From assembly GCF_013167455.1 (NCBI RefSeq), contig NZ_CP038328.1: a stretch of DNA of 64,000 nt; one strand, 5' to 3'. Source of the DNA: Escherichia coli O157:H7. Lineage in GTDB: Bacteria > Pseudomonadota > Gammaproteobacteria > Enterobacterales > Enterobacteriaceae. Positions 51,920 through 54,900 of the stretch are shown here, in pieces. Positions within the stretch are counted from its first letter, which is position 1. Every line of letters begins with the position of its first letter. The position numbers are program-made.

Positions 51920-54900
51920 TTAATTATTATCACAGATACGGCGACCAGGCAGGGAATTTGACCTGTCCATCAGTTGCCGGAAGACGCGCTTTGAAACGCC
52001 CATCTGTAGAAACCAAATTCAGCACGGATCCCATCCCCTGAGAAGAGCTGTAGATTACCATAGTGCCGTTAGGTGCCAGACTTGGCGTTTCATCCAGGAA
52101 CGTGGACGACAGAACTTGTACGCCTCCCGTTGCCAGATCTTGTTTGGCAATGTGCTGCTGCCCACCATTGGAGCTGACCATTACCATAAATTTACCGTCG
52201 CTGCTGACATCCGCATCCTGGTTCTGCGAACCTTCCCAGGTAATACGTTGTGGCGCACCGCCGTTGATATTCACTTTATAAACCTGTGGACGACCGGCCT
52301 GGTCAGAAGTAAATGCCAGGTTCTGGCTGTCCGGGAACCAGGTCGGTTCGGTATTGTTACTGCGACCATCAGTCACCTGGCGGATCTGACCAGAAGCCAA
52401 ATCCATTACGTACAGGTTCAGGCTACCGGTTTTCGACAAGGCGAATGCCAGTTTGCTGCCGTCTGGCGAGAATGCAGGCGCACCGTTGTGACGCGGGAAT
52501 GAAGCCACCTGACGTACAGCGCCGTTTGCCAGCGTTTGTATAACCAGCGCGGAACGACCGCTTTCGAAGGTCACATAAGCCAGTTTAGAACCGTCTGGTG
52601 ACCACGCCGGGGACATCAGCGGCTGTGGTGAACGGTGAACGACAAACTGGTTGTAACCGTCATAGTCAGATACGCGCAGTTCATACGGGAACTGACCGCC
52701 GTTGGTCTGAACAACGTAGGCAATACGGGTACGGAACGCACCTTTAATACCGGTCAGTTTTTCAAACACTTCATCACTGGCGGTATGACCAGCATAACGC
52801 AGCCACTGCTTGTTCACTTTGTACGAGTTCTGAGCAAGTACAGTACCCGGTGCGCCGCCAGTGTCAACAAGTTGATAAGCAACATTGTAAGAACCATCCG
52901 GATTCGGAGTGACCTGACCGACAACTACAGCGTCAATACCCAGCGCGGACCATGCAGCTGGTTGTACTTCCTGCGCACTACCCGGCTGCTGTGGCAGACG
53001 AGCGCGATCTAACGGATTAAATTTACCGCTGTTACGCAAGTCGGCAGCAACGATGCCGCCAATATCTTCAGGTGCCGCACCAGGGCCCGCCCACTGGAAA
53101 GGAACAACTCCAATAGGACGACCGGAATCTACACCGCTGTCGATCACAATGCGGACTTCAGCATGCAGAACTGATGCCCACAGTATGAGAAAACCAAATG
53201 CTACTCGTAATGCCTGCTTCATCATATCTCCCTTATCTGGACCGATGGCCCACGATAATTTAGCAGAATGTTAACAAACTAAAATACACAAAACTACCAG
53301 AACCCCGTGGCAACCGGTGCCTGATGTTGACCGTCGGAACAGTCAACATCGCGATTACGGTTTGAAGTCCAATGGCGCGTTTTTGAACACTTCATATACT
53401 GCCTGGCTTGGTGGTTTCGGGATCTTCGCAAGTTTAGCTGCTGCCAACGCAGCCTGACAAAGTGCGGGATCGCCACCTTCAGGTTTGATATCCAGTAACA
53501 TACCATCGGGTGCCAGTTTTATGCGCAGCGTACAGGTTTTGCCTGCATAGGACGATGCGTCATAGAACTTACTTTCGATAGCAGATTTAATCTGCCCGGC
53601 ATAGTTATTGATATCGGCCCCTGATGCGCCATTGTTTTTAGTATTACCACTCCCGGCAGGCGAAGCATTGTTCCCTTTCGCCCCTCCCCCCGTTTTCGGT
53701 GCATTCTTACCAGAGCTTAGCTCACCGAAAATATCATCTGCCTCCGCGGCAGCTTTTGCTGCAGCGGCTTTTTCAGCTGCTGCTTTTGCAGCTGCCGCTT
53801 TTTTGTCTGCGGCGGCTTTTTCTGCCGCTGCTTTCTTATCAGCTGCTGCCTTTTCAGCAGCCGCTTTTTCTGCTGCTTTTTTGTCGGCTGCAGCTTTCTC
53901 TGCTGCTTTTTTGTCGGCTGCAGCTTTCTCTGCTGCCGCTTTCTTTCTTGCTTCAGCTGCAGCTGCTTCTGCCGCTTCCGCTTTCTTCTTCAGCGCCGCA
54001 GCTGCTGCCTCGGCTTTTTTCTGCGCTTCGGCTGCGGCTTTGGCGGCTTCTGCTTCTGCTTTTTTCTTCGCGTCTGCAGCCGCTTTCTTCGCTGCTTCTT
54101 CCGCAGCTTTATCATCCGCTTCGGCCTTCGCTTTAGCATCTGCCGCCGCTTTCGCTGCCGCCTCTTCCGCTTGCTTCTGCTTTAACTCGGCCTGTTTTGC
54201 GGCTTCTTCAGCCTGCTTTTTCTGTTCCTGAGCAGCTAACCGCTCTTTCTCAAGTTGCTTCAGGCGTTCCTGTTCAGCCGCTTGTTTCTCACGCAGTTCT
54301 TCAGCAGCCTGCTGTTCCTTCATCTTGCGCTGCTCATCAGAACGCTTCGCGCTTGATTCCTGGCTTTGCATGCGTTTGTACTGCTCAACTACCGCACCTG
54401 AATCAACCATGACAGCGTCGATGGACGAACCACCGCCGCCTCCAGCTGAAGCTTCTATATTCTCATCGAACGAACTCCAGATCAGCGCCGCAAATAAGAT
54501 GACATGCAGCACTGCTGAAATAATTATCGCCCGCTTGAGCTTGTCGTTTTGTTCGGTTGCCTTTGACACTCTCGGTTTCCAAAAACTGTTCGCCTGTTAC
54601 CCGCTCTCTTTCAAGCAAGGGAAACGCAGATGTTTAGATAGGCTGCGTCATTAAACCAACCGATTTCACACCCGCACTATGTAACAAGTTCAGTGCTTTA
54701 ATTATTTCATCGTAAGGCACATCTTTTGCGCCACCGATCAGAAAGACCGTTTTCGGGTTGGCCTTGAAACGGCTGGACACTTCCGCCACCACCTGCTCTG
54801 GTGGTAAACGCTCCAGGCGATCTTTCTCAACCACCACGGTGTACTGACCAATACCAGACACTTCAACAATCACTGGCGGATTATCGTTACTGCTCACCGC

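Follow-up and report, generated by a model that had tools for sequence, protein, structure and literature searches.

Length polymorphism due to intragenic tandem repeats is a known property of the tolA gene of Escherichia coli (Zhou, Michiels, Aertsen 2012, PLoS One 7:e47766, PMC3477136). The gene described here is the tolA of an O157:H7 strain, located in a stretch of 64,000 nucleotides (contig NZ_CP038328.1, assembly GCF_013167455.1; the whole stretch is hereafter called the window), and encodes a TolA protein of 404 residues. In K-12 the tolA tract is made by 13 imperfect units of 15 or 18 bp (PMC3477136). A survey of 234 isolates (Zhou, Vanoirbeek, Aertsen, Michiels 2012, Res Microbiol 163:316), as far as its results are quoted in PMC3477136, revealed alleles of 8-16 units, 13 units, the K-12 length, being found in 66% of the isolates. 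A tolA deletion is complemented, at least in part, by each of the chromosomal variants, which carry 2, 6, 8, 13, 26 or 39 units. Tolerance to sodium dodecyl sulphate (SDS) is fully restored by every copy-number variant, tolerance to deoxycholate spans four orders of magnitude and is higher the more copies are present, 6-13 units give the best tolerance to 0.6 M NaCl at pH 5, and phage fd plates at 28-43% on every variant which does not carry 13 units (PMC3477136). Spontaneous contraction of tolA in K-12 occurs at a rate of 6.9e-5, is reduced to 15% in recA, increases 3.3-fold in uvrD, and does not change in mutS mutants. The contraction most often recovered in laboratory selections is a deletion of five units; the last two units, which overlap a stretch reported to bind YbgF/CpoB, are never lost (PMC3477136).

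The tolA gene is likewise a typing locus in Salmonella Enteritidis, where SENTR1 (SE-10), a locus of MLVA (the analysis of variable-number tandem repeats at multiple loci), corresponds to the orthologous variable-number tandem repeat. SENTR1 differs in the size of the unit (45 bp) and in the number of copies (7.8), and resides in another species (PMC2430564). No E. coli typing scheme naming tolA was found in the searchable literature, where matches are mainly to Salmonella and Klebsiella MLVA papers. TonB, a paralogous force transducer which also spans the periplasm, provides a more distant term of comparison. The domain II of TonB, made by Glu-Pro/Lys-Pro repeats, is like that of TolA a repetitive and length-variable spacer, which joins a motor-bound membrane anchor to a C-terminal domain engaging the outer membrane. 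In contrast to that of TolA, it folds as a polyproline-II helix and not as an alpha-helix; the two share no sequence similarity, and TonB is devoted to nutrient import, TolA to the stabilisation of the outer membrane. Swapping domain II between TolA and TonB gives partial function, which is also kept by chimeras with altered domain II length and composition; stabilisation of the outer membrane requires a structured domain II, whose deletion abolishes colicin uptake (PMC10666116). Across Proteobacteria the length of TolAII ranges from 110 to 335 residues (PMC12204202).

We regard the window gene as an ordinary and functional tolA of an O157:H7 strain, which carries one allele of the well-known in-frame minisatellite located in the C-terminal part of domain II, and assign to this reading a probability of about 93%. 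The locus matches the polymorphism described by Zhou et al. in the gene involved, in the position of the tract within domain II, in the 15/18-bp units rich in Lys and Ala, and in the in-frame variation of copy number. The length variant is an already known polymorphism, since work of 2012 already described the phenomenon, measured its rate and reported the first phenotypes, and nothing reported here is different in kind. What is added is the exact series of alleles in O55:H7 and O157:H7 strains, plausibly a chain of events passing through proteins of 410, 394, 404 and 424 residues, with the 30-bp duplicate found in the window as youngest event, and a few genomes with rare alleles of 447 and 462 residues, seemingly above the published range of copy number.

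The repeat tract of the window gene

The tolA coding sequence spans positions 53355..54569 on the minus strand, starts with GTG and encodes 404 residues followed by the stop codon, as read from the list of open reading frames (ORFs). This is the O157:H7 1215-bp allele, and is 100% identical in sequence to the tolA of O157:H7 genomes. The variable tract (53748..53939, minus strand; residues 211-274) can be divided into 12 units of the types AAAEK, AAADKK, AAEK and AAAAK, which measure 15 or 18 bp, and in a few instances 12 bp. Tandem Repeats Finder detects 12.3 imperfect copies of period 15 at 53752..53942, and a repeat search of the tract returned one family, D1, of 13 related 30-mers spaced by 15, 18, 30 or 33 bp. 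The period-15 array, the spacing of the repeat family and the decomposition into units are those of an in-frame minisatellite, as defined in PMC3477136.

Within the tract, the 30-mer CTGCTGCTTTTTTGTCGGCTGCAGCTTTCT (plus strand) is present in two adjacent head-to-tail copies, located at 53870..53899 and at 53900..53929. Base-for-base identity at period 30 extends over 68 bp (53869..53936, minus strand), and includes two perfect copies of the unit plus 8 bp of a third one. The duplication encodes AAEKAAADKK twice (residues 212-231), and its unit is bounded by the 8-bp sequence GCAGCAGA (coding strand). It is the sole perfect tandem run in the window tolA; the same scan revealed no perfect tandem run in the tolA alleles of K-12, Sakai and sequence type 131 (ST131). 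The duplication is not a chance match.

A preliminary description of the window had placed exact 30-bp tandem duplications at 53871..53930, coordinates which are one base off in phase, an immaterial shift, and had described domain II as made by (K/E)AAA-type repeats. The same description set the 404 residues of the window TolA against 421 residues in K-12. Alignment to tolA of K-12 MG1655 (b0739) returned exactly these unequal lengths, the genes measuring 1215 and 1266 bp, respectively. In the pairwise alignment the proteins differ by a single substitution, A153D, and by a net gap of 17 residues (51 bp), all in domain II. Residues 1-152 are the same as in K-12, and so is all that follows the variable site, including the distal units of the repeat, the linker rich in Gly and Asn, and domain III. 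At the DNA level, the two genes differ by 20 single-nucleotide polymorphisms (SNPs). Codon 153 (54111..54113, minus strand), the site of the sole amino-acid substitution, specifies Asp in the window and Ala in K-12. Asp153 is found also in UTME-4 in the multiple alignment, and is plausibly common to Sakai and O55:H7, because Sakai shows 0 mismatches to the window, and O55:H7 0 mismatches to Sakai.

Alleles of tolA in O157:H7 and other E. coli

The window allele was aligned to twelve other tolA alleles, and in each the tract from ...AEARKK to AEADDIF was split into units. All 13 alleles translate without internal stops. Length varies from 394 to 462 residues at a single hotspot, which corresponds to the proximal end of the tract, after ...AEARKK, in the C-terminal part of domain II. 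The last two repeat units are in turn invariant in 13 of 13 alleles. ATCC 8739 (423 residues) is an exception to the single hotspot, and carries an extra 6-bp (Ala-Ala) insertion, ...AEAAE(AA)AAAAEARKK, which lies upstream of the main site by about 10 residues.

Alleles of O157:H7 and of the related O55:H7 differ by whole blocks. The allele of Sakai, UTME-4 and ATCC 43894 (1185 bp, 394 residues) corresponds with 0 mismatches to the window allele (1215 bp, 404 residues) minus one 30-bp unit. The allele of O55:H7 RM12579 (1233 bp, 410 residues) corresponds, again with 0 mismatches, to the Sakai allele plus one 48-bp segment, and the 12-mer AAGAAAGCGGCA is found on both sides of the segment absent from Sakai. 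The K-12 allele (1266 bp, 421 residues) features one AAAEK-AAADKK pair (33 bp) which is absent from O55:H7. The allele of strain 272 (1245 bp, 414 residues) has a duplicated 60-bp block but lacks the 30-bp duplication, and the clade-8-type allele of ECP17-46, TW14359, EC4115, SS17 and SS52 (1275 bp, 424 residues) differs from the window allele by an additional 60-bp duplication and by one SNP. Within O157:H7, alleles of 1185, 1215, 1245 and 1275 bp are distinguished by 30- or 60-bp repeat blocks and by 0-1 SNPs; as read from these alleles, repeat number changes on a short time scale within this near-clonal lineage. No E. coli genome matched exactly a synthetic 1245-bp allele, in which the 30-bp unit is present in three pure copies, and therefore a pure 1, 2, 3 stepping of the unit is not observed. 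The best real 1245-bp alleles are 99.3% identical to the synthetic one and differ in structure, as they carry the 60-bp block duplication on the Sakai allele.

Alleles were counted at an identity of at least 99% among 5,425 complete E. coli genomes. The 1215-bp allele of the window was found in 143 genomes, the 1185-bp allele in 106, the 1275-bp allele in 45; the 1245-bp allele has 3 full-length matches, and its structure is confirmed for strain 272 only. Among the matches listed, 60 of 60 carriers of the 1215-bp allele are labelled O157 or O157:H7, or have O157-sized genomes, and originate from cattle, beef or human sources. In evenly spaced samples of the ranked match lists, the K-12 length was found in 26 of 39 and in 40 of 59 genomes. 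It is hence the majority allele at about 67%, close to the 66% quoted from the survey in PMC3477136. Full-length tolA genes measure 1185, 1215, 1224, 1233, 1245, 1251, 1260, 1266, 1272, 1275, 1290, 1299, 1311, 1344 or 1389 bp, all multiples of 3, and 1311 bp is the typical size of the ST131 tolA.

The tract is repetitive, and the 30-bp duplication could be viewed as an artefact of assembly or sequencing, that is a mis-resolved repeat in a low-complexity region. In one public genome, NZ_OZ489144.2, the tolA match (1887593..1888857) measures 1265 bp, is not a multiple of three, and probably reflects an error of one base in sequencing or assembly, or else a frameshift in the gene. For the window allele, however, such an origin is extremely improbable. 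The 1215-bp allele is present in ~143 complete genomes, independently assembled in many laboratories; a unit of only 30 bp is far exceeded by the length of any read; the allele preserves the reading frame, and has a lineage-consistent derivative, the 1275-bp allele being built on it.

According to a different view, the short allele was not generated in place, but came by homologous recombination from a different lineage of E. coli. The unrelated strain Ec15103 (NZ_CP104274.1, 301..1485) hosts in fact a 394-residue allele with the unit structure of Sakai, which implies either recurrence of the structure, or transfer of alleles from lineage to lineage. This gene, however, lacks D153 and differs by 16 SNPs from the window allele, and the K-12 gene by 20, whereas window and Sakai are separated by the 30-bp unit only, with 0 SNPs, and O55:H7 and Sakai by one deletion, again with 0 SNPs. 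Moreover, the 25 kb around tolA (39001..64000) are 100% identical to E. coli O157:H7 chromosomes. An import is thus very improbable, and the Sakai-like contraction in Ec15103 probably arose independently. About 312 genomes are at least 99% identical over the 25-kb flank, a number which agrees with the counts of the O157:H7 alleles.

The longest alleles were found in EcPF16 (NZ_CP054224.1, 301..1644), which has a tolA of 1344 bp (447 residues) with two extra copies of a 78-bp block of five units, and in VTB96937v (NZ_CP178667.1, 301..1689), where the gene measures 1389 bp (462 residues) and carries three extra copies of the same block. Both appear to exceed the published maximum of 16 units. 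In VTB96937v the RefSeq start of tolA is placed 42 bp downstream (343..1689), and the usual GTG frame is open from 301.

Formation and consequences of the 404-residue allele

We think that the window allele is the product of the ordinary instability of the minisatellite. Whole units would be added or removed in frame, either by slippage at short direct repeats, when units are misaligned during replication, or by unequal exchange mediated by RecA. The helical spacer which connects domain III, engaging TolB and Pal, to the anchor in the inner membrane would accordingly change in length, and the protein would not be disrupted. In the model proposed, a K-12-like tract would have lost 33 bp, giving rise to the O55:H7 state (410 residues); 48 bp would have been subsequently deleted between the 12-bp direct repeats AAGAAAGCGGCA, to yield the Sakai-type O157:H7 allele (394 residues); recently, the 8-bp GCAGCAGA would have seeded a tandem duplication of 30 bp, which generated the window allele (404 residues). 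A later 60-bp duplication of a window-type allele would account for the 424-residue allele of clade-8-type strains. The direction of the steps is plausibly that indicated by parsimony, O55:H7 being used as outgroup. O55:H7 is the recognised sister lineage of O157:H7.

The presence of AAGAAAGCGGCA on both sides is the classic footprint of a deletion between short direct repeats, and the 48-bp segment was plausibly removed by slippage at these 12-bp sequences. Like some of the laboratory deletions described by Zhou et al., the O55:H7-to-O157:H7 deletion extends into less conserved units upstream of the nominal tract (PMC3477136). In the Sakai-type progenitor, the unit to be duplicated starts with GCAGCAGA, and the sequence directly after it starts with the same 8 bases, which explains the 30+30+8 structure; slipped-strand mispairing at this 8-bp microhomology may be the origin of the 30-bp duplication. 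The resulting perfect 38-bp homology may be an easier substrate for further events, either RecA-dependent or due to slippage, as suggested by the 424-residue derivative.

Reconstructed from these alleles, the deficit of 17 residues relative to K-12 is the net result of three events (-33, -48 and +30 bp), and not of a single slippage. A scheme in which one 81-bp deletion was combined with the 30-bp duplication was discarded in favour of separate losses of 33 and 48 bp plus the duplication, given the O55:H7 intermediate. The preliminary description considered variation of repeat number by slippage likely. Changes of repeat blocks are indeed seen within O157:H7, and the direct-repeat footprints fit the mechanism, but the difference from K-12 requires three events and not one, and contraction in K-12 is largely RecA-dependent (PMC3477136), recombination thus contributing as well. 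The remark that the length of domain II affects the reach across the periplasm, and that it is used by colicins and filamentous phages, was broadly right, as length alters fd plating and deoxycholate tolerance (PMC3477136), and deletion of domain II abolishes colicin uptake (PMC10666116).

Nothing contradicts the reading that we favour; a few points restrict it. Slippage and recombination are inseparable on the basis of sequence alone. The order and direction of the steps rest on extant alleles, and not on a rooted genome phylogeny. By size, alleles of 1185-1311 bp approximately correspond to the 8-16 units quoted from the survey of Zhou et al., according to a conversion of length into units that we infer, and which is not taken from their figure. 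Finally, the 8-unit variant behaves like the wild type when challenged with SDS, or with NaCl at pH 5 (PMC3477136). The effect of the window allele, which has about 10 units by our inferred count, may therefore be nil.

The rise of an alpha-helix is 0.15 nm per residue. At this value, the helix of the window TolA would be ~2.5 nm shorter than that of K-12, and ~1.5 nm longer than that of Sakai. The effect of the 404-residue length on envelope robustness, or on the entry of colicins and phages, is likely small. Alternatively, tolA might be regarded as a contingency locus, and the 404-residue protein as a form selected in an O157:H7 sublineage, for instance by bile, acid or osmotic stress, or by escape from colicins and phages in cattle. 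Opposing selective forces have been proposed by Zhou et al., in whose engineered variants plating varies by as much as four orders of magnitude on deoxycholate, and 2-3-fold with fd (PMC3477136), and distinct alleles each recur in tens to hundreds of genomes of O157:H7. The large effects, however, came from extreme constructs (2, 26 and 39 units), and variants with 8 and 13 units differ only modestly; neutral hitch-hiking in clonal sublineages predicts fixation equally well. Adaptive tuning of this type is unlikely, though conceivable. It concerns the persistence of the allele, and is compatible with its formation by slippage or recombination. Somewhat harder to credit is the broader hypothesis that the ordered, lineage-marking series from 410 to 394 (Sakai/EDL-type), 404 and 424 residues (clade-8 type) is as a whole non-neutral, and tunes tolerance to bile and deoxycholate against tolerance to acid and osmotic stress, or the entry of colicins and phages, in the bovine or human gut. 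If true, the series would contribute to phenotypic differences between O157:H7 clades.

Under the reading of an ordinary minisatellite allele, the finding matters little beyond annotation. The length of TolA in E. coli should not be assumed from K-12, as about one third of the complete genomes differ, and at least four TolA lengths occur in O157:H7 alone. The tract may be exploited as a cheap marker, sized by polymerase chain reaction, of O157:H7 sublineages. In the Tol-Pal force transducer it is domain II that spans the periplasm, and natural length alleles are therefore suited to test the role of spacer length in outer-membrane stabilisation and colicin import.

Domains of TolA and surrounding genes

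The window protein matches the NCBIfam TolA equivalog model NF007065 over its full length (residues 1-404), scoring 543.7 bits against a cut-off of 213, and a second TolA model, TIGR02794, scoring 298.2 bits against a cut-off of 59.45. The globular C-terminal domain III (53364..53648, minus strand; residues 308-402), detected as Pfam PF06519 with 131 bits, is unchanged relative to K-12, and is the partner of TolB, colicins and the phage g3p protein. The N-terminal membrane anchor, or domain I (54477..54530, minus strand; residues 14-31, AIIISAVLHVILFAALIW), is also the same as in K-12. The SHLS motif (S-x3-H-x6-L-x3-S), which in the TolA anchor binds the motor (PMC10666116, PMC12204202), is present in the translation: S18 and H22 lie inside the anchor, L29 and S33 complete the motif. 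Between the two domains, the composition of the sequence delimits domain II (53739..54392, minus strand; approximately residues 60-277) as a long spacer rich in Lys, Ala, Glu and Asp, known for its helical character (PMC3477136, PMC10666116). Two plus-strand ORFs, 53608..54231 (207 residues) and 53699..54136 (145 residues), translate into low-complexity strings rich in Ala, Phe, Ser and Leu, and were rejected as antisense shadows of the Ala/Lys repeat, and not genes.

The operon (51374..56159, minus strand) includes ybgC (55755..56159), tolQ (55066..55758) and tolR (54634..55062) upstream of tolA, and tolB (51930..53225) and the pal ORF (51374..51919) downstream. The order is that annotated in the K-12 and Sakai operons, and tolA resides in its usual position within the series ybgC-tolQ-tolR-tolA-tolB-pal-cpoB. 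Six tRNA genes (four Lys-UUU and two Val-UAC) are found downstream of the tol-pal-cpoB operon, at 49716..50408 on the minus strand, and correspond in number and order to those annotated in Sakai (lysT valT lysW valZ lysY lysZ). Across the species, 2 of 5,430 places matching tolA are on plasmids, and tolA is without a match in 1 of 5,426 complete genomes. Only 370 of the 5,425 genomes cover at least 80% of the region 39001..64000 in one place, and the matching O157:H7 annotation of the region includes glmL, encoding a methylaspartate mutase accessory protein, alongside cydA, tolA and galK. Coverage in a minority of genomes, together with the glmL annotation, suggests that an accessory gene cluster, limited to a minority of E. 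coli, resides somewhere in this region.

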